Below, piece by piece: positions 13,058 to 59,581 of a DNA stretch of 64,000 nt. The stretch covers positions 103-64,102 of IMG/VR virus record IMGVR_UViG_3300020048_000138; one strand, 5' to 3'. How positions within the stretch are numbered: position 1 is the first letter of the stretch; each line of letters begins with the position of its first letter. A program made the translations under genes and the position numbers. Below the pieces are notes generated by a model. It did not search any database, was not told the DNA's origin, and was given only the letters and a program-made list of their open reading frames with translations. This DNA comes from a virus (lineage: Duplodnaviria; Caudoviricetes).

Positions 13058-16000
13058 CTACATTAAATTGTCTTCATCATCAAACATACCAATAACAAAG
13101 CACTTTTCTATAAAAGCATTAAATCTAGCTGTCTTTTTATAACCCGCCGTTGTTTTATTTAACATTCTAACTTTAACTAAAGCCTGTATAAGTGTTTTAG
13201 AGTCCTCTTTTGACAGATTTAACATAGCTTCAATGTCACCAGCGTGTAAATAATTCTGCTTAGCAAATATGTCTATGAAGTTAGCAAAATCATTGTCATG
13301 CTTTAAGGATGGGCAATTTTCACTTAGAAACTGTCTTAACTTTGTAAACTGGTCGTCTGTTATAGTATCTTCATTAACTGCTAACTTTGTATAATAATTA
13401 AGTCCACAGGCAGAAGCATTATATAAACTTTTCAAGTACAAGTATATGTATTCTACATGCGTAACTTTTACAACCACTTTTGTGTCTTCGTTTACGCTGT
13501 GCAACAAAATTGCAAGAGCTGTAGAAAGTCTTAATACTTTGTTTCTTTCGTCGGAAGGTGACACTAAAGGAACGTCAGTTGCTTTACCGTATAATGCTGA
13601 TAACTTGGAAGACATCTCAAGGATAGTAGCAACAGTATCATCAGGGAATATTATGTCGTCAGGTGTTCTACTCCACGCAAACAACACACTATGCTTTAAT
13701 ACATTCTTTGTTATTTTCTGTGGATAGTCAGGTATTTTCAAATTGTACTTTGCTGTGTCAACATCAATAGCTTTCATAAAGACACCAAAATCAAACCGTC
13801 TTATGTCTTCATTATTAAACATGTCTTTTAATGAAGCACACCCTTGAGTATAATCAGCTAGTCTTTTACCTTTAGGTACGTTACCTGAAAGTACTGCACG
13901 AACTCTACATGACGTTTCAGCAGTAACTGCTCTTTTTACTTCAAGTTTTCCATCTGACCTAGCTAATGTCATTTGCCCATATTCTTCTTTAGGAATAGCA
14001 CTTGCTTCATCTACCCATATAAATTCTTTGTCTGCTAATGGCCAAGCACCCCATTGAATAAACCAAGACCCTGTACCGTGTTGTTCCATCTTATAAGTTA
14101 AACCTGTTCTTGATGTGGACTCAGCATTAACTCTGGAACCAAGACCACAGTGATTCATAAGTTTTTCTATAAGAGCTGATTTACCAGTTCCTGTGTCACC
14201 TACTACTATAAATTCCAACCAACCTCGTATAGGTGTAGTATCCCAAGGTACTTTAATACGTAAAGCTGAATGATAGGTAAGTAATAAGCCAAGAAGTACA
14301 TCGTCCCTTTCAATTATTTTTGTTACATTACATGTAAGGTCATTTATAATGTCTTCCAACTTTGCATTTATACTCTGGCTTGAGTCTTCTGTACATTGAA
14401 ATAACTGTAAATCAGCAAGTACTTCATCCGTAACAGTAAATGAATCTATAACATCTTGCAACGGTTTTATAGCGTTTACTAGGATTGTACTTTCCTGATT
14501 CTTAGGGTGAGGATATACAAAACCTTCAATCTCATAGTACTTGTTTTCAGTTATGTTCAAAGCACCCATTGAATAAACTTTACGAATAACATACTTACTA
14601 GTAGAGTCTAATCGCTCTGTTGTGTCAGTCATTGGTATAACTAACAACTCTTCCATGTTAACAGTGCTAAGAATAGTATACTCATATTTAATACAAGCAT
14701 TAACACCAGATAAGCCACGAATAACGGCTTTAATGTTATCATCACCTATACCACACATTTGTATAAGTTCTCTGTTTTGGGATGTTAACTCTTTATATGC
14801 TGTTCTGTTTGGTATATTGTACAAAGGACATCCAGCTTTCTTGCATTTAGAATAACACTTGTATTCTATCTTGGAAGGTACTATATAAGGTGTTTGTTTC
14901 TTTCCAGCTACCATAACTTTTGTACGAACTAATTTACCGGAGAAAGAAGCACTACCTGTATTACTTAAATGTAAGTCAGTCGCATCACCCACAGCTTCAC
15001 TTCTTTTTATACAAGGACATAATATACCTGCACAAGGTACTCTTGCATACTCTTCATCTTCATCAACTGGTTTTGGTCCATGCAAAGACCTAATCAAAGC
15101 ACAACCGAATTTATACTGGCCACCGTAAACGGCCCTTATAACATTAGCAGTTGAAGACAGTCTTACTCCAAGTTCAGACTCACCTAATGCAGATGTAAAT
15201 CTTGATACCCAGTCACAAAGAATGTCTCTTGCTTCGTCTTCACCGTATCCGGCTTCTTTGAAGTAACAAGCCAGTTGAACAGTTGCTTGGTTTCTGTCAC
15301 CGTCTTTTTTCCAACCGTTTTTGAATATGTCTTCTACACATACTGGCATGTTATCGTGAGAAAATAAAAACTCAGTAGAATTTGTTACATCTTTAAGTGC
15401 TGATATTTCTCTGTATTGTTTCTCATGTTGTTCATAGAAATTGATAGCTAACTGTCTTTTTCTGTTCTCTAACTTAAGTTGTGTATCAGTATATAAAGGT
15501 TTATGTCTTGGACTTTTAGCAAGTTCCATTATTTCGTCTGTTGTTAAGTCCTTTAATTCATCATAAGTTAATTCATACTTATATAAATTAGTTGAACCGT
15601 GTACACTATTATCAAGCCTTAACATTCTTCGTGCATTATACACGTTAAGGTCTACTGTTTTCAAAAGTAATGTTTTGTCTAGTTTGTATATTAAATAACC
15701 AGCTATGTGTTTATAAATTTTATGTAAATCTTTAGCTGGACTAATATCAAAAGCTTTATCAGCTACTAATAAATGATAACCACGTCTGCCTGAGAAACTA
15801 ATACGTAACTGTTCTTGTTTAATGTCTAAACCTAGGAAAAATTCCACAAGTTTAATCATACTGAAACGAGCACTTTCTACATCGTCTTTTGCGTCTAAGT
15901 CAAACCACAAAGGCGCTATATACTCTTCATCTTTAGTAGGAGTACTTGTCGCGAATTTCTGGATTGTAGCAAAACAATTAATGTTTTTAGCTGTCTTATA

Positions 16001-16102
16001 CTGGAATGTATCAAGTTGTTCTACATTTATTCTGGCCCAAGGTGTGTTTTGTTCATTAACTACGTGTGTAGTATCTACATAGACAAAATCTTTTTTACTC
16101 AT
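13058..16102 (-). CDS. Archaeo-eukaryotic primase fused to an MCM-like AAA+ helicase
   Basis: AEP motifs WFDLD and FSGRRGYH; Cys cluster; Walker A GDTGTGKS; WVDE; RRFD arginine finger; winged-helix-like C-terminus. Confidence 0.8.
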   Translation of the reverse strand: MSKKDFVYVDTTHVVNEQNTPWARINVEQLDTFQYKTAKNINCFATIQKFATSTPTKDEEYIAPLWFDLDAKDDVESARFSMIKLVEFFLGLDIKQEQLRISFSGRRGYHLLVADKAFDISPAKDLHKIYKHIAGYLIYKLDKTLLLKTVDLNVYNARRMLRLDNSVHGSTNLYKYELTYDELKDLTTDEIMELAKSPRHKPLYTDTQLKLENRKRQLAINFYEQHEKQYREISALKDVTNSTEFLFSHDNMPVCVEDIFKNGWKKDGDRNQATVQLACYFKEAGYGEDEARDILCDWVSRFTSALGESELGVRLSSTANVIRAVYGGQYKFGCALIRSLHGPKPVDEDEEYARVPCAGILCPCIKRSEAVGDATDLHLSNTGSASFSGKLVRTKVMVAGKKQTPYIVPSKIEYKCYSKCKKAGCPLYNIPNRTAYKELTSQNRELIQMCGIGDDNIKAVIRGLSGVNACIKYEYTILSTVNMEELLVIPMTDTTERLDSTSKYVIRKVYSMGALNITENKYYEIEGFVYPHPKNQESTILVNAIKPLQDVIDSFTVTDEVLADLQLFQCTEDSSQSINAKLEDIINDLTCNVTKIIERDDVLLGLLLTYHSALRIKVPWDTTPIRGWLEFIVVGDTGTGKSALIEKLMNHCGLGSRVNAESTSRTGLTYKMEQHGTGSWFIQWGAWPLADKEFIWVDEASAIPKEEYGQMTLARSDGKLEVKRAVTAETSCRVRAVLSGNVPKGKRLADYTQGCASLKDMFNNEDIRRFDFGVFMKAIDVDTAKYNLKIPDYPQKITKNVLKHSVLFAWSRTPDDIIFPDDTVATILEMSSKLSALYGKATDVPLVSPSDERNKVLRLSTALAILLHSVNEDTKVVVKVTHVEYIYLYLKSLYNASACGLNYYTKLAVNEDTITDDQFTKLRQFLSENCPSLKHDNDFANFIDIFAKQNYLHAGDIEAMLNLSKEDSKTLIQALVKVRMLNKTTAGYKKTARFNAFIEKCFVIGMFDDEDNLM

Positions 16103-49154: not shown

Positions 49155-50740
49155 TCTGTGCTCCTTTTTTCTTTTGCCCTCGCTGTTCTCTTTTTAGATT
49201 CCGGCGAGTTCGTTGTTTTATCATCATTAACCGCACCGTCTTCCAAGTCTTTCATTGGAGCAACGGTCTTGTTTTCTTTGCCCATTGTATTTATTCCAGT
49301 TTCCTCATTTTCGTGCAGTTCACGTATATACGCATCATGCTCAATGTCGGCATCAGGAATAAAGGAGGCTACACTCATTCTCGTCTTTGTTGACACGTTT
49401 CCTTTCAGTTCCGTCTGGATTCGTGCTTCCTCCAACATATTTATAGGAATGTTTCTTGTCCACTGTTTGTGTACTTCGTAAGGGTCCAACATTATGTTTT
49501 TTATTGCCCAGAAAGTACTTAATGTTTTCCACATGTAGGTGTCTGCTGAGTCAAATTTAACTTCAAGAACTTTACATTTTTCTTCAAGTTGAGTTAACTT
49601 GTATTTAATAGCTACACCGGAAAGGTTACCATAAAAGTTTTCATCTTTGAAGTTAACAGACTTGGAAAAACGAATAATGTTTGTTTCAAGTTTGTCAAGC
49701 AAGGACATTATAGAGTCTATATCAACTTTCTTAGTAATAAACTCCACTTTCCCATCTCTTGTCATTTCAAACATACCTGTTTGACGAAGTTTGTCCATGT
49801 CAGCTTTAGTAGCTTTCAAACCGTACAAAGCAATATAGGCAAGTCGGAACTGTTCCATCTCAGAAGACAAGTCAGAAAGTACTTTATCATAAGTATCAAT
49901 AAGTTGGTATATTTTAGCACAATCTCCTTGTCTTTCATTATTATTACGAAACTCAAACAAAGGCACTGTTTTAAACATGTGCTTACGTGGGTTCTTAGCA
50001 ATAAAGGTTGTAGGTGCTAATAAACCACTTTCGTCAGCTAAAAAGTGATACACATAAGTTTCATCATATAGGTCAACAGCTAATCTGTTTTCTACTTCAA
50101 TGGAAGCTACTTTCTTGTTTCTACCGTTGTACTTCGTGCTAGCTACTTTCTGATAATAGTATCTGATAGAACAAGCAAGTGTTTTAGACAAGTCTTTGTA
50201 TATAAAAATAGTTTCCCATGGGTCGACGTTTACAACCTCGGGCTTTCCTTCCATGTTTATGTGCATAAGACGCGCACTTGTACCACAGATTGAAGACATT
50301 TTAACAGTTTCCATGTTAAGGTCTACCAAGTCATTTTCAAGACCAAACCGACGTACTTTATTGGTTATGTCGATATAAGAGTCTACTTTCTGTGTTTTAA
50401 GATAGTCCTTTATAGGAATGTCTATAGGTTTAACTGTGTAAGTTATAGGTATACCAGCCATGTAACCTTGTTTTGTGTCAATAATTTCAGACATAAAACT
50501 GTTATTTATCTGGTTGTTTATTTTCATAAAGTCAGGAAGTTCACGTGAAAATATAGGAGTGTCACCTAAAGATGCTTGGTAACGACCATACGCAGCCTTA
50601 TATGTAGCATGAGTTGCTGCATGCTTTGCTATAATAGCTTTAAGTATATAGTCTACGTCATTAACTAAAGTACTTTCAATAGTACAGTCATAATCTATAA
50701 TTTCTTTTTTAAGTACCTGTAACAGTTCATTAGGTATCAT
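49151..50740 (-). CDS. Portal protein (SPP1 gp6-like)
   Basis: VPLFEFRNN...GD...LIDTYD, NLSGVAIKYK. Confidence 0.93.
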   Translation of the reverse strand: MIPNELLQVLKKEIIDYDCTIESTLVNDVDYILKAIIAKHAATHATYKAAYGRYQASLGDTPIFSRELPDFMKINNQINNSFMSEIIDTKQGYMAGIPITYTVKPIDIPIKDYLKTQKVDSYIDITNKVRRFGLENDLVDLNMETVKMSSICGTSARLMHINMEGKPEVVNVDPWETIFIYKDLSKTLACSIRYYYQKVASTKYNGRNKKVASIEVENRLAVDLYDETYVYHFLADESGLLAPTTFIAKNPRKHMFKTVPLFEFRNNNERQGDCAKIYQLIDTYDKVLSDLSSEMEQFRLAYIALYGLKATKADMDKLRQTGMFEMTRDGKVEFITKKVDIDSIMSLLDKLETNIIRFSKSVNFKDENFYGNLSGVAIKYKLTQLEEKCKVLEVKFDSADTYMWKTLSTFWAIKNIMLDPYEVHKQWTRNIPINMLEEARIQTELKGNVSTKTRMSVASFIPDADIEHDAYIRELHENEETGINTMGKENKTVAPMKDLEDGAVNDDKTTNSPESKKRTARAKEKRSTE

Positions 50741-52137
50741 GCCACACTCCGTGTCATAGGAATTATTATGCCTGAGTCGTCTTCATCAATGCCTGCAAGT
50801 TTAGTAACACCCCAAACACAAGCGTCAAGTCTATTAGGTGACTTATCACCAGGTACCCATTCAGTAAGCTCTTCTTCAAGTTTAGCAAGTACGCCAACGT
50901 GATGAACTTTGCCTTGTTCATACAAAGCCGCCACTGGTTCTGCTCTTGTGTACTTATCACGTGACGCAAATACTTTCTCTACCGGTACATAAGGGTCTAT
51001 CAAGTTAATAACGGTACTAACTAAGTCACCGCCATTATTAACTTCAGCTACCACTTTGTTGGCTCTGTGTCTATGAAAAAGCATTATTACTTTTCTAGCC
51101 CAAGCATCAGCTCCTAACTTCTCGCTCTCATCATTAAGTACATAGTATTGGTTATCGTCTGACTCACCACAAATAATAATTCCAGTTTCATCAGACTTGT
51201 CTTTGTTAGTAACGGCAGGGTCAACTGATACATAAAGTTTACGTAAAGTAGGAGCAACCATAACTCTGTACTTGTCAAGTGTTTCAGTTTTCCACAAAGC
51301 GCCGATAACATCACCAAGTATTTCGGCATGTAATTCCTGTCTGCCGAGTCTTGTACCTTCATACTTTTTAATTACGCGCTTAATAAAGGACGTAGCCAAG
51401 TTAGAAATGTTCTCGTAAGAACTTCCGCTTGTCAAAAATACATCGTTATCTTTTATTAAGTCCTTAATTAAAGGTTTAGGCTGAGGTGTTGTCGTAACAA
51501 TCGCCTGCGGTAAAGCGCCAAGTCTCAACCCCATTTCAAAGTTGTCCCATGCTTCCTGCATAGCCTTAAATTTTACAAGTTCATCTACCCAGCCCTTTTC
51601 ATGCTGTGGACCACGTAACTGGTCCGGTTCATCGCCCGAGTAAAGGTAAGCGACGGCTCCGTTTGGCCATTCTACAACCCTTCGTGATGCGATATAACGT
51701 GGTTTGTTATAAGAAGGCGAACAAGTAATAATACCAGACTCACCTTCCAACATTACATCACGAACGTCAGGAGTTGTTTGCCCTATCAAGGCGAAACGGG
51801 AAGCACCCTTTATAGTCGATGGTGATTCCACTCTTTTGGATGGATTTTGCCACCGGATAATGGCCTCCGCTCCAGTTCTAGTTTTACCAAACCCTCGTCC
51901 TGCCAATATAAGCCAGATAAACCATTGTCCTGGCGGTATTTGCTGTTTAGGTCTACCCCAAAAGTCCCAATCACAATTGAGTTGCTCAATTTCAGACTGG
52001 TCATAACCTACCAATAGTTCTTTTCTAGCCTCCACGTCCAATTCTGCAACCTTCTCTGCCATAGAAAGGCCACTACGTGTATCCATAGTAGGCCCATTCG
52101 GCTTAATAGATTTGTCAGAATTAACATGGTTAAGCAT
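50737..52137 (-). CDS. terL: Terminase large subunit
   Basis: GRGFGKT, LRGPQ, WVDE, VTTTP, VSVDP, SPNRLDA. Confidence 0.96.
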   Translation of the reverse strand: MLNHVNSDKSIKPNGPTMDTRSGLSMAEKVAELDVEARKELLVGYDQSEIEQLNCDWDFWGRPKQQIPPGQWFIWLILAGRGFGKTRTGAEAIIRWQNPSKRVESPSTIKGASRFALIGQTTPDVRDVMLEGESGIITCSPSYNKPRYIASRRVVEWPNGAVAYLYSGDEPDQLRGPQHEKGWVDELVKFKAMQEAWDNFEMGLRLGALPQAIVTTTPQPKPLIKDLIKDNDVFLTSGSSYENISNLATSFIKRVIKKYEGTRLGRQELHAEILGDVIGALWKTETLDKYRVMVAPTLRKLYVSVDPAVTNKDKSDETGIIICGESDDNQYYVLNDESEKLGADAWARKVIMLFHRHRANKVVAEVNNGGDLVSTVINLIDPYVPVEKVFASRDKYTRAEPVAALYEQGKVHHVGVLAKLEEELTEWVPGDKSPNRLDACVWGVTKLAGIDEDDSGIIIPMTRSVA

Positions 52138-52149
52138 TATGTCTTACCC

Positions 52150-52929
52150 TTACTCAGTCTCTGTTGTTGTATTTGTGTTAGCGGCGCCCAAGTCTCTCTT
52201 TTTAAGTACTTCATCCAGTCTGTTGTGAAGTACGTCAAGCGGAGACATAGCCACTTCAATTGCTTTTCCGTCACGGCCAGATATTTCCAGTCTGTCCTTA
52301 AATATACCCAAATATTTACCAAGATTTTCCAGTGCACGTATTTTGTCATGTAACTTTATCTTAACAGACCCGTCACGTGACGATGATATTTCACAAATGG
52401 CACGTCTCGCATTCTCGTCTATGTTACCAGATGACTTCAAACTAACATTTTTGCCATCAAATTCAACAAACTGACATACATCAGCAAAACCGATTATAGC
52501 AAGTTCCTTAATTACGTCATCAGCACGCACCAAAGACTCATCACGAAGTTCAGCAAGCATTTTAGAAATGTAAGCCTTACAGTGCGGCCTCCCCAGGATT
52601 TGCAACGCTGTTCGTTCAATTACACCGGCACGGTCACAAGCTGTTGACATATTGAAGCAGGAAGCGACATATTCGTCCAGGAATATCTTTTCAACTGGTG
52701 ACGGTTCTTTGAAGGACAGTTCAGTTAAAAGGTATTCGCCTCCACGTCTTATAATTTCAGCTTGGACTTTTTCAGATGCCAGAGTTTTCAAGCCAGCGTA
52801 TTCAGCATTGTAAACTTCTTTACCCGCTTTACGGCCTTCTGGTTCTTTGTGGAAAAGATACAAGTCAATAAACTCAGCCTCTTTAGGACTAAGTGGTTTT
52901 GAGTTCTGACCGTACGCTGTTGATGCCAT
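52150..52929 (-). CDS. terS: Terminase small subunit
   Basis: VIKELAIIGFAD...KIKLHDKIRALENLGKYLG; directly upstream of terL. Confidence 0.85.
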   Translation of the reverse strand: MASTAYGQNSKPLSPKEAEFIDLYLFHKEPEGRKAGKEVYNAEYAGLKTLASEKVQAEIIRRGGEYLLTELSFKEPSPVEKIFLDEYVASCFNMSTACDRAGVIERTALQILGRPHCKAYISKMLAELRDESLVRADDVIKELAIIGFADVCQFVEFDGKNVSLKSSGNIDENARRAICEISSSRDGSVKIKLHDKIRALENLGKYLGIFKDRLEISGRDGKAIEVAMSPLDVLHNRLDEVLKKRDLGAANTNTTTETE

Positions 52930-53264
52930 TCTGTTTTCTCCTTATTGACCGTTGACCTTAACATTATACCCTAGGGGTATACGAATGTCAAATATATTTT
53001 TACATTTTTCCCTATAAATTAAAATATATTTTACCTCAGGGAAATCATTTATAATTAAGATGTTGTTGATAAATGTCTCTATACGGATGTATTTATTGGA
53101 TTTAACAGATTGCGGACTGTTGTTAACTGTGGAGAACATAAGGATGACTTAAAATCCTTTATTCTTCTTAATATACGCGGGAGGGAATTATTAAGGGATA
53201 AGTAGGTGGGGATAATAAAAAGGGGACCTGACCGGTAAAATACAACTAGCATAAGTACAGTAGC

Positions 53265-53353
53265 GCCTCGTGCTTCCTGTGTCCAGATGTAAAAGGTAAC
53301 CTTGCCAGTAAAATTAAACCTTACTTAGTAAAGCACTGCCTCGTGCTTCCTGT
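53265..53353. repeat. 16-bp direct repeat upstream of terS
   Basis: GCCTCGTGCTTCCTGT at 53265-53280 and 53338-53353. Confidence 0.8.
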
Positions 53354-53420
53354 TTCCAACCCAGTGGGCAGTGATAAGGCGTGAAACGCTCCTCAACTAG
53401 GGATTTCCGAAAAAACGAAA

Positions 53421-53546
53421 TATCAGACCCCCCTCTTTTTTTTTCCTGGCCTAATTTCTTTTATAAAATATATTTATATAAATATCAATACCCCTTAATT
53501 TTTTTATATATAGAATTATATTTGATTTTCTTGATTAGATAAGTTC
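53421..53546. repeat. Arm B of the diverged long-range inverted repeat
   Basis: Matches the reverse complement of 25881-26000. Confidence 0.8.
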
Positions 53547-53567
53547 ATTGTATTTAATGTAATATTA

Positions 53568-53662
53568 TGGAATATAGTGGAACACAATGGAACACAATGG
53601 ATTCCTCCGAGGGTATACGTATTATAATTGAATTTAATGGAACAGGATGGAATATAATGGAA
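53568..53662 (+). repeat. 10-bp-phased TGGAA repeat array
   Basis: TGGA at 53568, 53578, 53588, 53598, 53638, 53648 and 53658. Confidence 0.8.
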
Positions 53663-54374
53663 ATACTAAGTTTTTTTCACAATGACTTGGGTTCAAAATG
53701 GATTTTCAAAAGATTGAAGGCCCCCTTCGTCAAAATTTCAAAATTATATATTTGCCATTTTACAAAATACTTGCCCGTACGGTTCAGTAAATCTGCACAC
53801 CCCTCATTTCGGAAAAGTTGTGTATTTTTCAACGTCACTTTCCGTGTCTACAACCCTTAAACACCATTCAAAGAGGTTGTAAGAGGCCGTACTTTTGCAA
53901 AAAAACTCAAAACACTGTGTGGTTAAGAAAGCCAGTGAGTCCCATGTAACTCTAACAATACCTAAACTATTCTACTTTTAGTTTTTTGAACTTAAAAGTT
54001 TTTTGTTCAAAAAGTTTTTTAATTAAAAGGTTTTTAAGTTAAAAGTTTTTTGAATTAAAAAATTAAATGTTCAAATTAATTATAATTCGATTATTTTTAA
54101 TAGTTAATAAAGATTTTTTATTTTATATTTGATTTAATTATTTATAATAATCATTAGAATATTTTTATTTAATATTAAATTAGATTATTTAGAATAAGGA
54201 TTAAACAATTTATATTTAATAATTAATTATATTATTTATAATAGAGATTAAACATTTTATATTTAATACTAAAATAGATTATTTTTAATTGTTATTAGAA
54301 TATTTATATAAAATAATAAATTAGAATAGATTTAATATTGATTAGAAATTTTAGATTGATTGATTGATTTTAGA

Positions 54375-54908
54375 TTATCTTGAAATAATAGATTGATAAA
54401 CAACCTGCAAAAGATTAAATATATCATCATCATTAAAATGATTTTCAATGATAAAATTATGATAAAATTCTGCTAAATTTTCTTGACTTTCTAAGAAGTT
54501 TTCAAGATTAGAAATATCTAAAGATTTTTCTAAATCAATATTGATTAGAGAATAAATATCAAAAATAACCTCTAAATCAGATTTATTGAGATTTTCATAT
54601 AATTTCTGATAATCAGCTTTTATTTCTCTATTGTTTTCTAATTCTTCATTGAAAATGTCAAGATATTCTTTAGAATTTTCAAAATCATTATAAAAAATTT
54701 GAGATAGATAAAACATATTATTATTTTGATAATTGATAATTCTCATATTAGCAAAATCTTTATCTTTTTGAATATAGAGCAAAATTCTTTTTTCTGTTTT
54801 ATTTTGCTCTAAAAAATCATCATAATAAGAAACTTCAATTTCAATCTTTTCAATTTCATAATTTTCAACATTTTTAATTTCATTCGATAAAATTTCAATT
54901 TTCTGCAT
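54375..54908 (-). CDS. Acidic hypothetical protein (DNA-mimic candidate)
   Basis: GAGAGG SD; 37 D/E versus 16 K/R; no Gly, Pro, Trp or Cys. Confidence 0.7.
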   Translation of the reverse strand: MQKIEILSNEIKNVENYEIEKIEIEVSYYDDFLEQNKTEKRILLYIQKDKDFANMRIINYQNNNMFYLSQIFYNDFENSKEYLDIFNEELENNREIKADYQKLYENLNKSDLEVIFDIYSLINIDLEKSLDISNLENFLESQENLAEFYHNFIIENHFNDDDIFNLLQVVYQSIISR

Positions 54909-55432
54909 AATAAACCTCTCAGATAAGAATTAATAAAACAACAAAAATCATTAGATTATATAATATTTTTTAATAAAAAGAAAGAAAATAATTAAAATTT
55001 ATAAAAATACTCCATATTTTCAAAGATTCTATTTTCTTTCAAAATATCTTGAATAGCTCTAAAACGAATAGATTTTAATTCTATTGAATAAAGATGATTT
55101 TTAATATTAAGATATTAATCTAATCATTTTCGTTTAACCTTGCTTAATTCTGAGATTCAAATTTTTTCTTGACTTTTGAAAATTTTTTATGATGAAAAAT
55201 AATATTCAAGAAAACTTGACTTTTTTATAAATATTTCTCAGAAAAATCAATTTTATAAAAACACCATAGATTTTTATTTATATTTTTATTTTATAAAAAA
55301 ATTAAAAAATATCTTTACTTTTATATATTTTTATGATATATTTCTTTAGTTCTTTTGAAACTGAAACAGAGATTTTGCGATTCTAACCAGATAAGCATAA
55401 AAATTAAAAAGAAAAAATAAAATTCTTTTTTA

Positions 55433-55461
55433 TTGCTTTTTATGAAAAAATCGTTTATAAT
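55433..55461 (+). promoter_or_regulatory. Sigma70-type promoter for the plus-strand early genes
   Basis: TTGCTT-17bp-TATAAT; chance matches are likely in such AT-rich DNA. Confidence 0.5.
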
Positions 55462-55743
55462 CTCAATAGAGAATTGAAAATTTCAATTTCTCTTTTCTAG
55501 TTCTTTGAAATTTTAAGAATTGATTTTTATTTCTGAATTTTTCAAGATTTTGAAAACCTCTGAAAAATCTGAAATTTTGAATTTTTGAAATTATTTTTTT
55601 AATTTTGAATTTTTGAAATTTTTTTAACGGTTTTTCAGATACTTCTTGAAAACCAGAAATAAATTAACCCTGAAACCAAGTTCGGTGACGGTTACCGGTA
55701 AGGCTACCGGAACCGGTTACCGAACTCACTATAGGAGGCTACC

Positions 55744-56046
55744 ATGCAAACTACAGAAGTTAAATCAGGCAAAGGGTTCAAAATCACTACTGACCTCGGA
55801 ACCGGTCATCAGGTGGTAACTGTGATGAAGGCTGACCTCAAGGGCATCGCCTACACCCAGGCTATCGGAACCGGTTTTGATAAAGGTCACCAGAACAAAG
55901 GTCTGGTATTCCTAAGTCAGGTGGTTAAGGAACTATTAGGATTAGAGGTGGACCTGAATGCTGAAAGAAAGGCAGCGATTCAGAGACTCAGAGCGGCAGA
56001 CCAGTCAGCCATCATCAGCGACGAGCTGGCTTCGATGGCTCACTAG
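55744..56046 (+). CDS. Hypothetical early protein, paralog of 57725..58177
   Basis: GGAGG SD; DLKGIA...QNKGLVFLSQ...EVDLNAER. Confidence 0.8.
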   Translation: MQTTEVKSGKGFKITTDLGTGHQVVTVMKADLKGIAYTQAIGTGFDKGHQNKGLVFLSQVVKELLGLEVDLNAERKAAIQRLRAADQSAIISDELASMAH

Positions 56047-56718
56047 AACCAGGGGCCAGTCGCCCCTTAAGGTCAGGGTTACAACCCCTGGACTTAAGAA
56101 GCGGTTGGAGACCACAGGCGATGACCAGTGACCAGCTGACTCCCGATTCCAGTCATATCTGGAGGCAGGAGACAGATGGCCGACGAGTCCAGGTGGCAGA
56201 CTGCAGGCCAGGTGACAGATGGCAGGAGAAATGATTGAACTGGTTCATCACTAGAGCGCCCACAGTTGACAACTGTTGACGAATCGGGTGAGGCCAGGTG
56301 ATTCCTAGGTCTTTGACAATCGAGCAGCGGGAAGGTCAGCCAAAAACCTGGCTACCTCTAAAGAAACTTACTGGGTGACCCTATATGTGGGGGTCCCGGC
56401 CACTGGGTCATCGAAAAATTTCATCAAATTTCTCGAAGTAGGACCCAGGAAGCAGTAACCAGCTACTCGCTATCGGCGAGCCAGTTACCTGTAAAGGTGA
56501 CCAGTAAAGGCCAACAGTTATCTCTAAAAGATGACCTCCAGCCTCCTACCGGCAATCGGTTACCAGCAAGTTTCAAAAAGAAAGGTATAGTAAAGCCCCT
56601 CCTAACAAACCCCTTGACCTGGTATAGGTCAAGGGTCAGCTATGGAGCCTACAGTCCCCTTTGGTGATTCAACCAAAGGAGGTTGTAGACCCTATAACTT
56701 AGAACAAGGAGGCACCAA
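56047..56718 (+). ncRNA. Candidate structured non-coding RNA or regulatory DNA
   Basis: ~670 nt GC-rich gap with no ORF of 60 aa or more and many long hairpins. Confidence 0.35.
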
Positions 56719-57150
56719 ATGGTAAGAATGACACTTGAAGAAATGGCCAACTGTTTAGAATCTAAACCCGATGTGTTTAAAGTCCCATCAGGAAAACCTA
56801 AACTTACCAAGGCCGGCCGAGACCGTCAGAAAGCACACTATGCAGACCGAGCAGACATCTGCCGAGTCCTAGCCAAGTACCTCATAATCCTAAAGGTGAA
56901 CTTTCACCTGGATTATAAGACTACAACAATGTGGATTGACTCAGTGCGAGTCACTGAAGGCATCCTTCAGTTCACCCATAGTGAGGTTGTAAACAGCGAA
57001 GAACCTGTCGACCATATCACTATGTTACTCAGAATGGCCGATGCCTATGATGACTGCTATGAGTCTGTTAATTCAGTCGAAAACATGTTTTACAACCTTG
57101 ATGTTGATTATGACATGCAAGACTTTATCGGTCACAAGAAAGAGCTTTAG
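56719..57150 (+). CDS. Hypothetical protein
   Basis: AAGGAGG SD; followed by a hairpin. Confidence 0.75.
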   Translation: MVRMTLEEMANCLESKPDVFKVPSGKPKLTKAGRDRQKAHYADRADICRVLAKYLIILKVNFHLDYKTTTMWIDSVRVTEGILQFTHSEVVNSEEPVDHITMLLRMADAYDDCYESVNSVENMFYNLDVDYDMQDFIGHKKEL

Positions 57151-57157
57151 ATTTATC

Positions 57158-57181
57158 GAGTCCATTGGCAACAATGGGCTC
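57158..57181 (+). terminator. Hairpin (terminator or processing site)
   Basis: GAGTCCATTG-GCAA-CAATGGGCTC. Confidence 0.55.
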
Positions 57182-57217
57182 TATTGAGTCCAAAGTGGGC
57201 TACTAAAGGAGGCGATT

Positions 57218-57571
57218 ATGTTAAAAATTACTATGGCTATGACAGGAATTATGTTTGTCGGTTTAATCACACTTTGTGCCAACTATGCTAGTGCAGCAGA
57301 CGAAGCACTTGATGAGGTTGTAAGCGGTTGTGAGGAATCTTGTGGCAACTTTCCTGGAGCACAGTTCAATGAGTGCTTTCAGCAGTGTGTTGAAGCTGGT
57401 GGACCTGGGGAATCAGACTGGGAGCCAGAAATTGACTGTGATGAGTGCTACGAATGTAAGTGTGTAGGTGAGTGTACCTATGACAACATGACCTGTGAAT
57501 TTCAGCACACAGATACTTGTGTTGAGAATTGTTTAGTTGATGGCGAAGACATTTATGGTGACTGGGAATAG
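57218..57571 (+). CDS. Secreted Cys-rich acidic protein
   Basis: Signal peptide ending ASA|A; 12 Cys in the mature part, several as CxxxC. Confidence 0.75.
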   Translation: MLKITMAMTGIMFVGLITLCANYASAADEALDEVVSGCEESCGNFPGAQFNECFQQCVEAGGPGESDWEPEIDCDECYECKCVGECTYDNMTCEFQHTDTCVENCLVDGEDIYGDWE

Positions 57572-57586
57572 ATTCGACTTACTGTG

Positions 57587-57611
57587 CCCTGTGGAATTAA
57601 ATTCTACAGGG
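57587..57611 (+). terminator. Hairpin (terminator or processing site)
   Basis: CCCTGTGGAAT-TAA-ATTCTACAGGG. Confidence 0.55.
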
Positions 57612-57645
57612 TACGAATAAGTTGAAATTTAAGTACAGAAAAGTC

Positions 57646-57674
57646 TTGATTTTGATTTCAACTGGGTGTATAAT
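57646..57674 (+). promoter_or_regulatory. Sigma70-type promoter
   Basis: TTGATT-17bp-TATAAT upstream of 57725. Confidence 0.7.
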
Positions 57675-57724
57675 ATAAAAAGATGATACGAAATTCGGTT
57701 TGTATTATCTAGTTAACTTAATGA

Positions 57725-58177
57725 ATGGAGGCTACTATGTCAAAAAAGAACACAAAAAACCAAGTGAACACAGTTGTTGAGTCTACCCCTGAAATGGTTC
57801 TTGAATCAACAGAGGTTGTAGAAGTGTCTGTAAGGGACCTTGTGAAAAAGGAAGCAGAGACAGTAAGCATTAACCTGGAGGCAGGAAAGTACAAGATTTC
57901 TGACAAATCGGTGATTTACAAAAGAGGCAAGGCTTGGACGATTGACACCACCATAGACGAAAAGAATGTGGTTGGTTCAGTACTCAAAGATGACCTTAAA
58001 GGAATAGCAAGGACCTACTGGGTGGGTGGTGAAAAAGCCTACCAGAACAAAGGTTTGGTCTATCTCAGTCAGATTATTAAGGCCCTTCTTAATGTAGAGG
58101 TTGATTTGAACCATGAAAGGCAGATAGCAAGAGAGTTCATAAGGTTACATGAAAGTGAATTGACATTTAATCAGTAG
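57725..58177 (+). CDS. Hypothetical early protein, paralog of 55744..56046
   Basis: DLKGIA...QNKGLVYLSQ...EVDLNHER. Confidence 0.8.
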   Translation: MEATMSKKNTKNQVNTVVESTPEMVLESTEVVEVSVRDLVKKEAETVSINLEAGKYKISDKSVIYKRGKAWTIDTTIDEKNVVGSVLKDDLKGIARTYWVGGEKAYQNKGLVYLSQIIKALLNVEVDLNHERQIAREFIRLHESELTFNQ

Positions 58178-58185
58178 AGTGTTAT

Positions 58186-58207
58186 GCCTCATTAGTGATA
58201 ATGGGGC
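58186..58207 (+). terminator. Hairpin (terminator or processing site)
   Basis: GCCTCATTA-GTGA-TAATGGGGC. Confidence 0.5.
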
Positions 58208-58219
58208 TCATAGACTTTA

Positions 58220-58690
58220 TTGGCTATTAAGGAGGCTATTATGATTACTAAGTTTGGTTCTCAAATTCGCAAGGCTATGAATTGCGAGCAGTGCTATGAG
58301 TGGAATGGTGGGTGCATCAGCCTAGACGAAGCCTGCAACAAGAATGGGTCGTCTACAACCCTGTTAACCGAGGCATTAAGACTGGCAACAGCTAATGGCT
58401 ACGGTGTGATACTTGGAGGAAAGAATCTGATAGCAAGACACCGGGTGGATGGAGACTTGAACTTCCAGTATGTTACCAGTGCCATCTATTGGTTCACTCT
58501 TTACAACCACTTTAAAGAGGTTGAAGGAGTCGAGAAGTTGGAGAAAGGAGGCAAGAACTGGCAACTGTGTTGGAAATGCACAGACATACTGGATGGATAC
58601 TTTGAAGGTGACCAACAGACAATAATTCCTTGCTCTTTACCTGAACTTGATGACGAACTCATCAACAAGGCTATGGTGATATTTAAGTGA
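58220..58690 (+). CDS. Hypothetical protein
   Basis: Probable start MITKF after AAGGAGG; CxxC motifs. Confidence 0.7.
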   Translation: MAIKEAIMITKFGSQIRKAMNCEQCYEWNGGCISLDEACNKNGSSTTLLTEALRLATANGYGVILGGKNLIARHRVDGDLNFQYVTSAIYWFTLYNHFKEVEGVEKLEKGGKNWQLCWKCTDILDGYFEGDQQTIIPCSLPELDDELINKAMVIFK

Positions 58691-58698
58691 CTTGCACC

Positions 58699-58723
58699 GT
58701 GTTAACTCTGTTTGAGTTAACAC
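58699..58723 (+). terminator. Hairpin
   Basis: GTGTTAACTC-TGTTT-GAGTTAACAC. Confidence 0.5.
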
Positions 58724-58765
58724 CATGGAGGTTGCATAAGGTAACCACTTTATTAATTTTGTTAC

Positions 58766-59161
58766 ATGGAGACTACTATGGGAAGACAATCAAAAGACCT
58801 TTTTACATCAAAGAACCTGCTTGTTGAAGTGTTTAAAGGAGCAGGAGCCAAGACAAGGGAGTTGTGTAGAGATGCTTCAAAACCCGCTTTGAATGCCACT
58901 CTTTCGCTGGCATTACTTAAAGGCGATAAAGATGCAGTTAAAGCCCTTATTAACAAAGGGGCAGAGATTGACGAGCAGGCAACATTTCTTGCTTGTGCCT
59001 CTGGCAACCTTGGTATAGTTGAGATGTTTGATGACCGTTATGCGGAGTTCACAGAAGACGATGTGAAAGTGGCTAAACTTAATGGTTATATGGACATTGC
59101 AGACTTTGTACAGGAGAGACTGGACGCTGAAGAAAGAAGAGCGAAGGACCTTATTAAGTAA
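58766..59161 (+). CDS. Ankyrin-repeat-like protein
   Basis: ALLKGDKDAVKALINKGAEID, ACASGNLGIVEMF, AKLNGYMDIADFV. Confidence 0.7.
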   Translation: METTMGRQSKDLFTSKNLLVEVFKGAGAKTRELCRDASKPALNATLSLALLKGDKDAVKALINKGAEIDEQATFLACASGNLGIVEMFDDRYAEFTEDDVKVAKLNGYMDIADFVQERLDAEERRAKDLIK

Positions 59162-59166
59162 GCTGA

Positions 59167-59197
59167 TTCAATGGCGGGTATTACAACCGCCATTGAA
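59167..59197 (+). terminator. Hairpin overlapping the genome-wide octamer
   Basis: TTCAATGGCGG-9nt-CCGCCATTGAA. Confidence 0.55.
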
Positions 59198-59209
59198 ATG
59201 AACTGACTT

Positions 59210-59581
59210 ATGGAGGTAAACATGGAAGAAAGTTATGCGATGATTAAAGAATTTAGTACATCAAAACTGAGTATGATTGACAGTTACAGACTTAAGGATC
59301 GTATCAAAGACGCTTCTATGAAAATAGCTGTGGCTAAGCGTATCTTAGTTACAGAAGAGCCTATGTGGATAAAGATTGTATGGGTTGACAACAGTGTTTG
59401 GAAAGCCCCTATATTATTTACAAACTGGGCTTTGGTTTACTTGTATATGCTTAATATTGACGCTATGGAAGCCGAAAGCAAGAAACAAAGTGTAGACGCT
59501 ACCAAAATATGGACTCTATACTACACTTTCGTGTATCCTGGTTTTTTAATGTCCTTTGAAAACTTTATAAAAAGAGGTTAA
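59210..59581 (+). CDS. Hypothetical protein
   Basis: GGAGG SD before MEESY. Confidence 0.65.
   Translation: MEVNMEESYAMIKEFSTSKLSMIDSYRLKDRIKDASMKIAVAKRILVTEEPMWIKIVWVDNSVWKAPILFTNWALVYLYMLNIDAMEAESKKQSVDATKIWTLYYTFVYPGFLMSFENFIKRG

Follow-up and report, generated by a model that had tools for sequence, protein, structure and literature searches.

The AT-rich island and its parts

The DNA analyzed here is a stretch of 64,000 nucleotides (the window), positions 103 to 64,102 of the IMG/VR virus record IMGVR_UViG_3300020048_000138, from a tailed phage of the Caudoviricetes. The source genome is a single contig of 64,102 bp with 36.7% GC, and the window covers nearly all of it. Genes lie on the minus strand up to position 52929, and a block of orphan genes lies on the plus strand from 55744 onwards. 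In between is an extremely AT-rich island of 1.66 kb (53990-55650), the subject of this report. It is built of three parts of one unusual composition: a block of tandem repeats, a gene inside the island that we call ORF177, and a gene-free stretch. Their features are as follows.

53976 to 54060, no strand: left edge array of five 16-bp units of type TAAAAGTTTTTTGAAY, with an A4-5 G T5-6 motif; units seen in register
54079 to 54357, no strand: 47-bp tandem array, about 5.9 copies, 8-10% GC (Tandem Repeats Finder)
54337 to 54397, no strand: 18-bp repeat rich in GATT, with (GATT)4 in its 3.3 copies; overlaps the ORF177 3' end
54375 to 54908, minus strand: ORF177, gene for a 177-amino-acid acidic orphan protein (stop-free frame, homolog, start signals)
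54915 to 54920, minus strand: ORF177 ribosome-binding site GAGAGG, read from the sequence
54955 to 54960, minus strand: TATAAT hexamer about 47 nt upstream of the ORF177 ATG, with no good -35 hexamer present
54909 to 55650, no strand: gene-free stretch between diverging genes, 742 bp, 17% GC (observed/expected AC/GT 0.43, GA/TC 1.67, TA 0.59)

Composition of the island

With 134 G and 139 C (8% each), the island has a GC content of 16.4%. All 300-bp windows below 22% GC start within 53901-55401, the minimum being 8.7% at 54051, and the genome contains no other such stretch. A preliminary description of this DNA, made without database searches, had reported a drop to about 9% at 54121-54360, where we measure 8.8%. 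It had also placed the remaining G and C mostly in GA/TC and AG/CT contexts, and GA/TC dinucleotides are indeed at 1.68 of expectation (191 observed versus 114 expected), with A following G in 96 of 134 cases and T in 18 of 134. Its near-disappearance of GT/AC holds as well (0.41 of expectation, 47 observed versus 114 expected). The absence of GTAC (0 in the island versus 356 elsewhere), by contrast, carries no extra information, because the dinucleotides of the island predict only 0.2 occurrences. The claimed purge of GG/CC (0.49 over the whole island) applies inside ORF177, where 2 are observed versus 10 expected, but is not significant in the non-coding parts. TA is at 0.68 and AA/TT at 1.18 of expectation. 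The AC/GT and GA/TC biases are both weak to the left of the gene, at 0.73 and 1.40 in the non-coding part there.

None of 2000 mononucleotide shuffles of the island reaches its AC/GT or GA/TC value. Across 245 other 500-bp windows of the genome, AC/GT is 1.20±0.14 (minimum 0.78) and GA/TC is 0.83±0.13 (maximum 1.22), and their correlations with GC content are r -0.20 and r +0.09, respectively. As the shuffles fail and a correlation with GC is nearly absent, low GC does not explain the dinucleotide pattern, which disposes of one objection that had been foreseen. The Karlin-type dinucleotide-signature distance from the island to the core genome is 340, versus 66±23 (maximum 114) for 31 core windows of equal size.

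A simpler description of the pattern is more economical, namely that G is embedded in runs of A, and C in runs of T. The island has 640 switches between purine and pyrimidine, versus 830±20 predicted by its composition, and a mean purine or pyrimidine run of 2.59, versus 1.83-2.24 in 32 other windows. TpA steps number 198 versus 289±10, and A-tracts cover 48% of the island versus 38±2%. A model in which G and C are random transitions in an AT background was rejected: a hand calculation predicts about 111 AC/GT where 47 are observed, and the model also predicts equal numbers of GA and AG, which occur 191 and 133 times.

The early block to the right (55651-59200) is GC-richer than the genome, at 48% and then 41%, and GC at third codon positions is 36-54% in the first four of its genes compared. 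Its signature is off as well (distances 146 and 118 versus 66±23). The 54-59 kb region is compositionally mosaic as a whole.

The gene inside the island

ORF177 is a real gene, because it combines a long stop-free frame with a ribosome-binding site, a TATAAT hexamer and a homolog that differs by in-frame indels. The stop-free frame extends over 184 codons, versus 61.7±11.7, and never more than 109, when the island was simulated 1000 times with a Markov model. GC content at codon positions 1, 2 and 3 is 35, 11 and 12%. The encoded protein is strongly acidic (isoelectric point, pI, 4.28; 37 D+E and 16 K+R residues; net charge about -21) and lacks Gly, Pro, Cys and Trp altogether. Its FYMINK residues make up 0.49 and its GARP residues 0.04, versus 0.24-0.36 and 0.15-0.26 in 14 other genes compared. 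The single homolog (P0002), the only one among 5.8 billion proteins, is 61-68% identical; diverged by 32-39%, it is still free of Gly, Pro and Cys and has a FYMINK value of 0.46. The composition pressure on the island is not confined to non-coding DNA: it is strong enough to remove Gly, Pro, Cys and Trp from the ORF177 protein.

Other searches with ORF177 returned little. Among 1.84 billion representatives it found only itself, and Pfam, PHROGs, a PDB sequence search, exhaustive HMMER, the ESM Atlas and Foldseek gave nothing usable as to family or fold. Four sub-threshold matches in Pfam at E up to 10 include none of the ArdA/Ocr type, Foldseek gives 0 matches to the PDB at E<=0.001 with a weak AlphaFold model (predicted local distance difference test, pLDDT, 60.5), and a PDB profile search gives no relevant match. 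In GenBank phages, neither tblastn with ORF177 nor near and distant searches with the island DNA produced a match, and no ORF177 was found in viral contigs. Two matches in metagenome contigs proved spurious, being pattern matches in an unrelated 195-amino-acid protein encoded in ordinary-GC DNA.

The position of the gene also bears on the suggestion that the island marks a divergent transcription start. Gene orientation does switch here; since, however, the minus-strand gene 54375-54908 sits inside the island, the true divergence point is to be sought between 54908 and 55744.

Conservation in relatives and soundness of the assembly

A relative contig from another data set (L001/L009) matches 53400-54299 with 87.65% identity and breaks off within the 47-bp array. 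Collinearity extends through the left junction and 310 bp into the island, and because it comes from a separate data set, the left junction is independently supported. In the left repeat block the two sequences have similar GC contents, 10.2% here versus 12.0% in the relative. The alignment inside the repeats is uncertain; as it stands, changes between A and T are the largest class (30 of 57 differences), next to 16 AT-to-GC and 10 GC-to-AT differences. The composition of the left block thus looks like a maintained equilibrium rather than decay or a drift back to the genome average. The composition of the island as a whole appears to be a maintained state; it is not a by-product of low GC.

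For the right side the evidence comes from a third relative. P0002 and P0003, the latter a 91% identical homolog of the first rightward gene, ORF100, are each encoded on one contig of 3133 bp, and the sources agree. The two contigs are very probably one, which suggests that the gene order ORF177-spacer-ORF100 is kept there. If so, ORF177 (61%) diverges much faster than ORF100 (91%). The protein search that gave 1 homolog among 5.8 billion yielded no ORF177 counterpart from the relatives with P0004-P0006. A search of relatives for a similar island has located its left part in L001 and an ORF177 homolog in one further relative. No GC drop as large as that of the island was seen in other loci related to the large terminase subunit TerL (best 80 of 568 confirmed loci), where the largest was 0.23; L001 is the only close relative among them, all others having at most 57% TerL identity. 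A 22-nt word from the conserved flank matched only the known relative in viral contigs.

An assembly artefact or chimera at a low-coverage, AT-rich repeat, the second objection foreseen in the preliminary description, is very improbable. The contig of the relative ends in the 47-bp array, so assemblers do break here, and tandem arrays can be mis-sized. Against an artefact speak the independent contig that runs collinearly through the left junction, the single 3133-bp contigs of the ORF177 and ORF100 homologs, and the intact ORF177 with its start signals. Moreover, 95% of the words sampled from 52000-58000 are present in one sequencing run, which may itself be the source sample.

The left repeat block

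The left non-coding block measures 385 bp at 10% GC; it starts with five A/T-tract units of 16 bp and continues with six units of 47 bp. For the left edge, Tandem Repeats Finder gives a period of 16 with 5.1 copies (53980-54060), and both the copy number and the phase of this array are retained in L001. The 47-bp array is only about 70-80% identical to L001 and diverges faster than its flanks. The short repeats noticed previously are real and belong to larger structures, namely the arrays of 16 and 47 bp and the right-edge repeats of 16/28 bp: the two copies of GATTAAACAwTTTATATTTAATA are two units of the 47-bp array, and a pair of AATTTTGAATTTTTGAAATT is part of the right-edge repeats at 55570-55625.

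The 47-bp array is the least stable DNA of the genome by nearest-neighbour stability (-0.91 versus -1.258±0.074 kcal/mol per bp); the 100-bp window with the lowest value begins at 54211. The block is located between ORF177 and the late packaging genes of the same strand. The least stable DNA of the genome also coincides with a switch in transcription direction, and at the level of sequence the earlier idea of an unwinding element is supported. The plus strand of the block contains 32 G versus 8 C. The predicted RNA fold of 53632-54010 is no better than that of shuffles (z 0.13), and a reading of the block as a Rho-loading (rut) site was rejected on account of its irregular UC spacing.

Phage type and host

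PHROG scans of 89 greedily chosen open reading frames (ORFs) from the whole window identify contractile-tail genes (sheath, baseplate, tape measure), portal and major head proteins, a TerL gene (50737-52137) and a TerS gene (52150-52929). They also identify a T4-like set of nucleotide enzymes, with a dCMP deaminase, two thymidylate-synthase-like proteins, a dUTPase/dCTPase-like protein and kinases, as well as a 642-amino-acid NodU-like carbamoyltransferase. No integrase or repressor family was matched, and no lysogeny genes were seen. The phage is predicted to be a virulent myophage that carries genes for hydroxymethyl- or carbamoyl-cytosine DNA modification; a 5-hydroxymethylcytosine carbamoyltransferase is described as a phage enzyme in PMC8670742. 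The carbamoyltransferase itself was not found in viral contigs, and among GenBank phages only 24-30% identical proteins were found.

A stop-free frame continues across the joined ends of the contig, and a search for a terminal repeat at the ends found none; the genome is therefore probably complete and circularly permuted. A primase-helicase of 1014 amino acids is encoded at 13058-16102. Its best matches, at 54% identity, are Bacillus phage proteins, one of which is annotated 'MCM domain family'. Because of these matches, the strong ribosome-binding sites and the sigma-A-like promoters, the sequence hints at a Bacillota host. No tRNA was found, and the sole Rfam match is a chance-level miRNA outside the island.

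Restriction words and silencer motifs

Word counts bear on the suggestion that the island has been cleared of restriction targets. The whole genome contains only two GATC sites (window positions 59297 and 60063), versus about 214 expected by composition and 85 by a Markov estimate, which points to strong selection, presumably by a GATC-reading host system. The island has none versus 5.0 expected (P 0.006); given that GATC is avoided everywhere, this is part of a genome-wide trait and not particular to the island. The absence of TTTAAA is particular to it: none is present versus 11.6 expected in a dinucleotide simulation (0 of 1000 runs as low) or 6.0 by the highest-order estimate, while 48 copies versus 63-78 expected occur elsewhere in the genome. 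TTTAAA is the only one of the 36 AT-only hexamer classes that is absent from the island. This is the sole island-specific hint of site avoidance, and it could equally reflect a general avoidance of TpA.

TpA steps and the words AACTA, TACTA and ATATA are described as preferred by the silencers Rok, H-NS and MvaT, and A-tracts as disfavoured, in PMC6212790 and PMC8476142. In the island, AACTA occurs 3 times versus 8.3 expected, TACTA once versus 8.3 and ATATA 18 times versus 42; the rest of the genome is not depleted of AACTA (205 versus 223) or TACTA (260 versus 223). TpA-poor, A-tract-rich and with few of these words, the island resembles the 'self' DNA that such silencers disfavour, a comparison limited by the fact that TpA depletion is common in natural AT-rich DNA.

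The gene-free stretch and the right boundary

The dinucleotide pattern of the gene-free stretch matches that of ORF177, and 54909-55650 contains no stop-free frame longer than 66 codons. The promoters for the rightward orphan genes and for ORF177 are probably located in these 742 bp, because no other place is left between the start of the rightward genes at 55744 and ORF177, whose promoter has to lie on its right-hand side. The stretch and its right boundary have the following features.

55176 to 55203, plus strand: candidate promoter TTGAAA-16-AATAAT, 10/12 matches, by consensus match only
55314 to 55342, plus strand: candidate promoter TTTACT-17-TATATT with a TG extension, then TAGTTCTTTTGAAA (scan and sequence reading)
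55433 to 55461, plus strand: candidate promoter TTGCTT-17-TATAAT, 9/12, read by eye, below the scan thresholds
55468 to 55493, no strand: 26-bp palindrome AGAGAATTGAAAATTTCAATTTCTCT after the candidate promoter 55433-55461, which is also followed by a second TAGTTCTTTGAAA
55570 to 55625, no strand: right edge repeats TGAAATTTTGAATTTT, period 16 in 3.6 copies, 28-bp unit in 1.9 copies (Tandem Repeats Finder)
55679 to 55726, plus strand: GC-rich hairpin at the right boundary, directly before AGGAGG (55733-55738) and ATG (55744)
55744 to 56046, plus strand: ORF100, 49% GC, which opens the rightward block of orphan ('early') genes; ribosome-binding site AGGAGG

Two copies of a TAGTTCTTT(T)GAAA box are also present in the gene-free stretch, whose promoter-like sites point both ways. 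Strong sigma-70 matches are few in the island. The RNA of 55640-55760, which includes the hairpin, folds with -38.8 kcal/mol (z -4.39), and none of 200 shuffles folds as well. An 18-nt segment of the hairpin (55701-55718) recurs with one mismatch at 55859-55876, inside ORF100. The sequence GAACTCACTATAGGAGG at 55722-55738 resembles the core of a T7-class promoter; we treat the resemblance as a probable coincidence, because no single-subunit, T7-like RNA polymerase family is among the PHROG matches of the window ORFs.

The early genes directly downstream of the island have 41-49% GC. ORF100 has homologs of 91, 86, 67 and 65% identity in other metagenomes, and neither ORF100 nor its family alignment found a match in viral contigs, bacterial genome contigs or GenBank phages. 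ORF100 (55744-56046) and the C-terminal half of ORF150 (57725-58177) look like paralogs, with the common stretch LKGIA..QNKGLV.LSQ..K.LL..EVDLN.ER. A 144-amino-acid relative (P0007, 47% identity) and P0005 are each encoded on a 6435-bp public contig. Between the early genes, about 670 bp (56047-56718) of 48-60% GC have no ORF longer than 57 codons and a fold z of -2.1.

Interpretation and alternatives

Phages commonly have AT-rich repeat islands at the switch between early and late genes, and the usual interpretation is that of a promoter hub or an origin. Most likely, the island is an early control or unwinding region of this familiar kind, unusual mainly in the extremity of its composition. 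For a more specific form of this reading, an early locus of two-way control with an unwinding element or origin, we see about an even chance. Host RNA polymerase would start in both directions from the gene-free 742-bp stretch, in which host-type promoters would serve ORF177 leftward and the orphan operon rightward. The left repeat block would act as an unwinding element, possibly as a transcription-assisted or repeat-bound origin, and it may also be a barrier that shields the late packaging genes from early leftward transcription. We favour these roles for the block because it is the least stable DNA and lies between ORF177 and the packaging genes. What the analysis shows is the anatomy, the statistics, the reality of ORF177 and the conservation in relatives; promoter activity and its early timing, unwinding or origin function, and the reason why the composition is kept are inferred.

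Phage T4 offers the closest comparison. According to PMC3016281, its minimal origins oriF and oriG combine a promoter with an A+T-rich unwinding element, and oriE, oriF and oriG, which are active origins, are found at points where transcription changes strand. The island has a comparable AT-rich, easily melted block beside promoter-like sites, at a switch of the transcribed strand (54908-55744), and T4 belongs to the cytosine-modifying class too (PMC3016281). A TATAAT at 53623-53628, with ATGGAA repeats on its flanks, points toward the left block and would fit an inward promoter. The T4 minimal origins are, however, only about 100 bp long, whereas here 385 bp of tandem repeats are part of a 1.66-kb island that codes for a protein. 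No MotA-type promoter was identified, and the origin here is a putative one.

Several observations speak against a two-way control region with an unwinding element. Just one rightward site in 54909-55650 reaches 10/12 promoter matches, the excess of promoter-like sites is modest region-wide (30 versus 18.6±4.1 in shuffles), and the two TTGACT hexamers, at 55169 and 55216, have at 16-18 bp no -10 hexamer that could serve. No domain for DNA binding or replication can be recognised in ORF177, and the primase-helicase gene is 38 kb away. In the left block, G/C positions are less conserved (22 of 33) than A/T positions (245 of 291) and therefore do not look like individually selected contacts. A search for A-tract phasing at 10-11 bp found none, so that strong intrinsic curvature is unsupported. 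The size of the 47-bp array may be wrong from assembly, as the contig of the relative ends inside it, and the right junction is supported solely by the fact that the contigs of P0002 and P0003 are both 3133 bp long.

Two further explanations are each unlikely and yet have to be taken seriously. One would make the island a replication origin proper, in which the 16-bp and 47-bp repeats bind an initiator, for example the primase/MCM-type helicase, and the ultra-AT core opens. The least stable DNA of the genome is indeed flanked by or filled with direct repeats, the position at a transcription switch is that of oriE, oriF and oriG of T4 (as described in PMC3016281), the 32 G versus 8 C on the plus strand could favour an R-loop under rightward transcription, and the phage encodes the 1014-amino-acid primase-helicase with one match of the 'MCM domain family'. 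Direct repeats beside the most meltable DNA, together with a primase/MCM-type helicase, recall iteron-plus-AT-rich origins to which self-loading helicases bind, such as, as commonly understood, the Rep-ori of Staphylococcus aureus pathogenicity islands (SaPI). That the primase/MCM-like helicase reads an iteron-type origin here is a live alternative. However, no rep or other initiator gene adjoins the repeats (ORF177 is acidic and matches no family), and the repeats are long (16 and 47 bp), AT-only, without demonstrated two-sided symmetry and, in the 47-bp units, poorly conserved between relatives (about 70-80%). The periods of 16 and 47 bp are not whole helical turns, and cumulative GC skew, which tracks gene orientation, cannot separate an origin from transcription. 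The other explanation concerns where the island came from: acquired as a whole from a very AT-rich donor, it would retain the signature of that donor. Such a history is compatible with a control region, but the composition would then say nothing about function. The signature distance (340 versus 66±23) and GC content (16.4% versus 36.7%) would fit foreign DNA, the coding part and the right non-coding part share one signature, the boundaries of the island are sharp, and ORF177 is an orphan with one homolog among 5.8 billion proteins. The adjoining early block is compositionally off as well (48% GC, distance 146), which fits a mosaic accessory region. With its atypical composition and an orphan gene with its own start signals between modules, the island also resembles a moron or accessory cassette as generally conceived. 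Yet no donor was found in the searches with ORF177 and the island DNA, no terminal repeats or mobility gene were seen, and this phage, unlike the usual moron carrier, has no lysogeny genes that we could see. At least one diverged relative, and probably a second, has the island, with two-way turnover and no drift toward 37% GC (10.2% versus 12.0%), and the diverged homolog P0002 still lacks Gly, Pro and Cys. This equilibrium and the missing donor argue against a recent acquisition.

Less probable still are two explanations that tie the composition to the entry of the phage DNA. In the manner of T7 or T5, the island could be a leading region that enters first, free of restriction targets, and drives ORF177 as an Ocr-like anti-defence protein; we regard this as improbable. 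According to PMC11863960, the internalisation signal of T7 is a non-coding leading end of about 850 bp with the three strong promoters A1-A3, followed by ocr. The island is similar in being an AT-rich stretch upstream of early genes with a small acidic, early-looking gene and some restriction words absent (GATC 0 versus 5.0 and TTTAAA 0 versus 11.6 expected). ORF177 has a pI of 4.28 and a net charge of about -21, which recalls the DNA mimics Ocr and ArdA, and it evolves fast (61% versus 91% for ORF100, in what is probably one relative). The ATGGAA repeats of 53567-53662, which are phased at 10 bp and a candidate packaging site, are 330 bp away. However, the T7 signal sits at a fixed genome end, whereas the missing terminal repeat and the frame across the joined ends suggest a permuted, headful-packaged genome without a fixed leading end. 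GATC avoidance is genome-wide (2 versus 214), and a T7-type promoter array is not what the island contains: it harbours a 177-codon gene that points away from the early operon, and its promoter matches are weak, with one rightward site at 10/12. ORF177, finally, has no similarity in sequence or fold to known DNA mimics (model pLDDT 60.5). We consider it similarly improbable that the island is a modification-poor zone, in which, with a bulky modified base in place of every C, the first promoters and gene are kept nearly free of C on both strands so that unmodified host machinery can act on incoming DNA. The phage does encode a dCMP deaminase, a ThyA-like hydroxymethylase candidate, the dUTPase/dCTPase-like enzyme, kinases and the NodU-like carbamoyltransferase, and a carbamoyltransferase for 5-hydroxymethylcytosine has been published as a phage enzyme (PMC8670742). 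The island has only 8% C and 8% G, and the plus strand of the left block has just 8 C in 385 nt. Against this, the rightward early genes start at 49% GC directly after the island, and consensus-like host promoters elsewhere hold C and G and have C-rich spacers in ordinary-GC DNA (for example 52991-52963). T4, whose cytosines are fully modified, uses ordinary early promoters.

There is perhaps a slim chance that several of these pressures combine, such that a cytosine-replacing phage keeps a 'bare' control island of 1.66 kb, nearly free of modified bases, without the flexible, TpA-rich and AACTA/TACTA-type sequences on which host silencers get a grip and without AT-only words such as TTTAAA. 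If so, the island would be an entry point on the incoming genome that melts easily and is neither silenced nor cut, open to host RNA polymerase and to the replication machinery. AT-only restriction words would have been purged because cytosine modification cannot protect them, and under this pressure the encoded protein would have lost all Gly, Pro, Cys and Trp.

The early control or unwinding region favoured here is a clean and extreme case, in that low GC provably does not account for its composition, which seems to be at equilibrium in diverged relatives and spans a gene whose amino-acid make-up it bends. If the composition is selected, whether for meltability, for escape from silencers or against restriction words that modification does not protect, the island would be a tractable case for studying which DNA-level constraints bear on control regions in cytosine-modified phages. 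As no more than a foreign cassette, it would be of local interest.

The left flank of the island

The gene-free DNA to the left of the island (53400-53990) is about 92-98% identical to L001 in long runs, versus 87% for genes. It is probably a constrained non-coding element, since indels break its 97-codon frame. It contains the 10-bp-phased (A/G)TGGAA repeats, in 3.5 and 4 copies at 53567-53601 and 53623-53662, on either side of GGATTCCTCCGAGGGTATACGTATTATAAT. These repeats are about 640 bp upstream of terS and nearly identical in the relative, and are a candidate packaging (pac) site or an array of activator sites.

An inverted paralog of 54 bp, 91% identical, links the two large intergenic regions of the genome (53477-53529 and 25891-25944), both of which also carry a divergent pair of GGTTGTAR words (53848/53875 and 25820/25837). 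This word occurs 64 times on both strands, mostly inside genes, versus 6.3±2.4 times in shuffles; the 2.2-kb gap without GGTTGTAR at the island is not unusual. The word CAGGAAGCA is found at 56446 on the plus strand, with inverted copies at 53271 and 53344, and four such repeats precede terS in L001. Upstream of terS itself is a perfect TTGACA-17-TATAAT on the minus strand (52963-52991), which is kept in L001 and whose spacer holds the palindrome TATACCCCTAGGGTATA, in appearance an operator.

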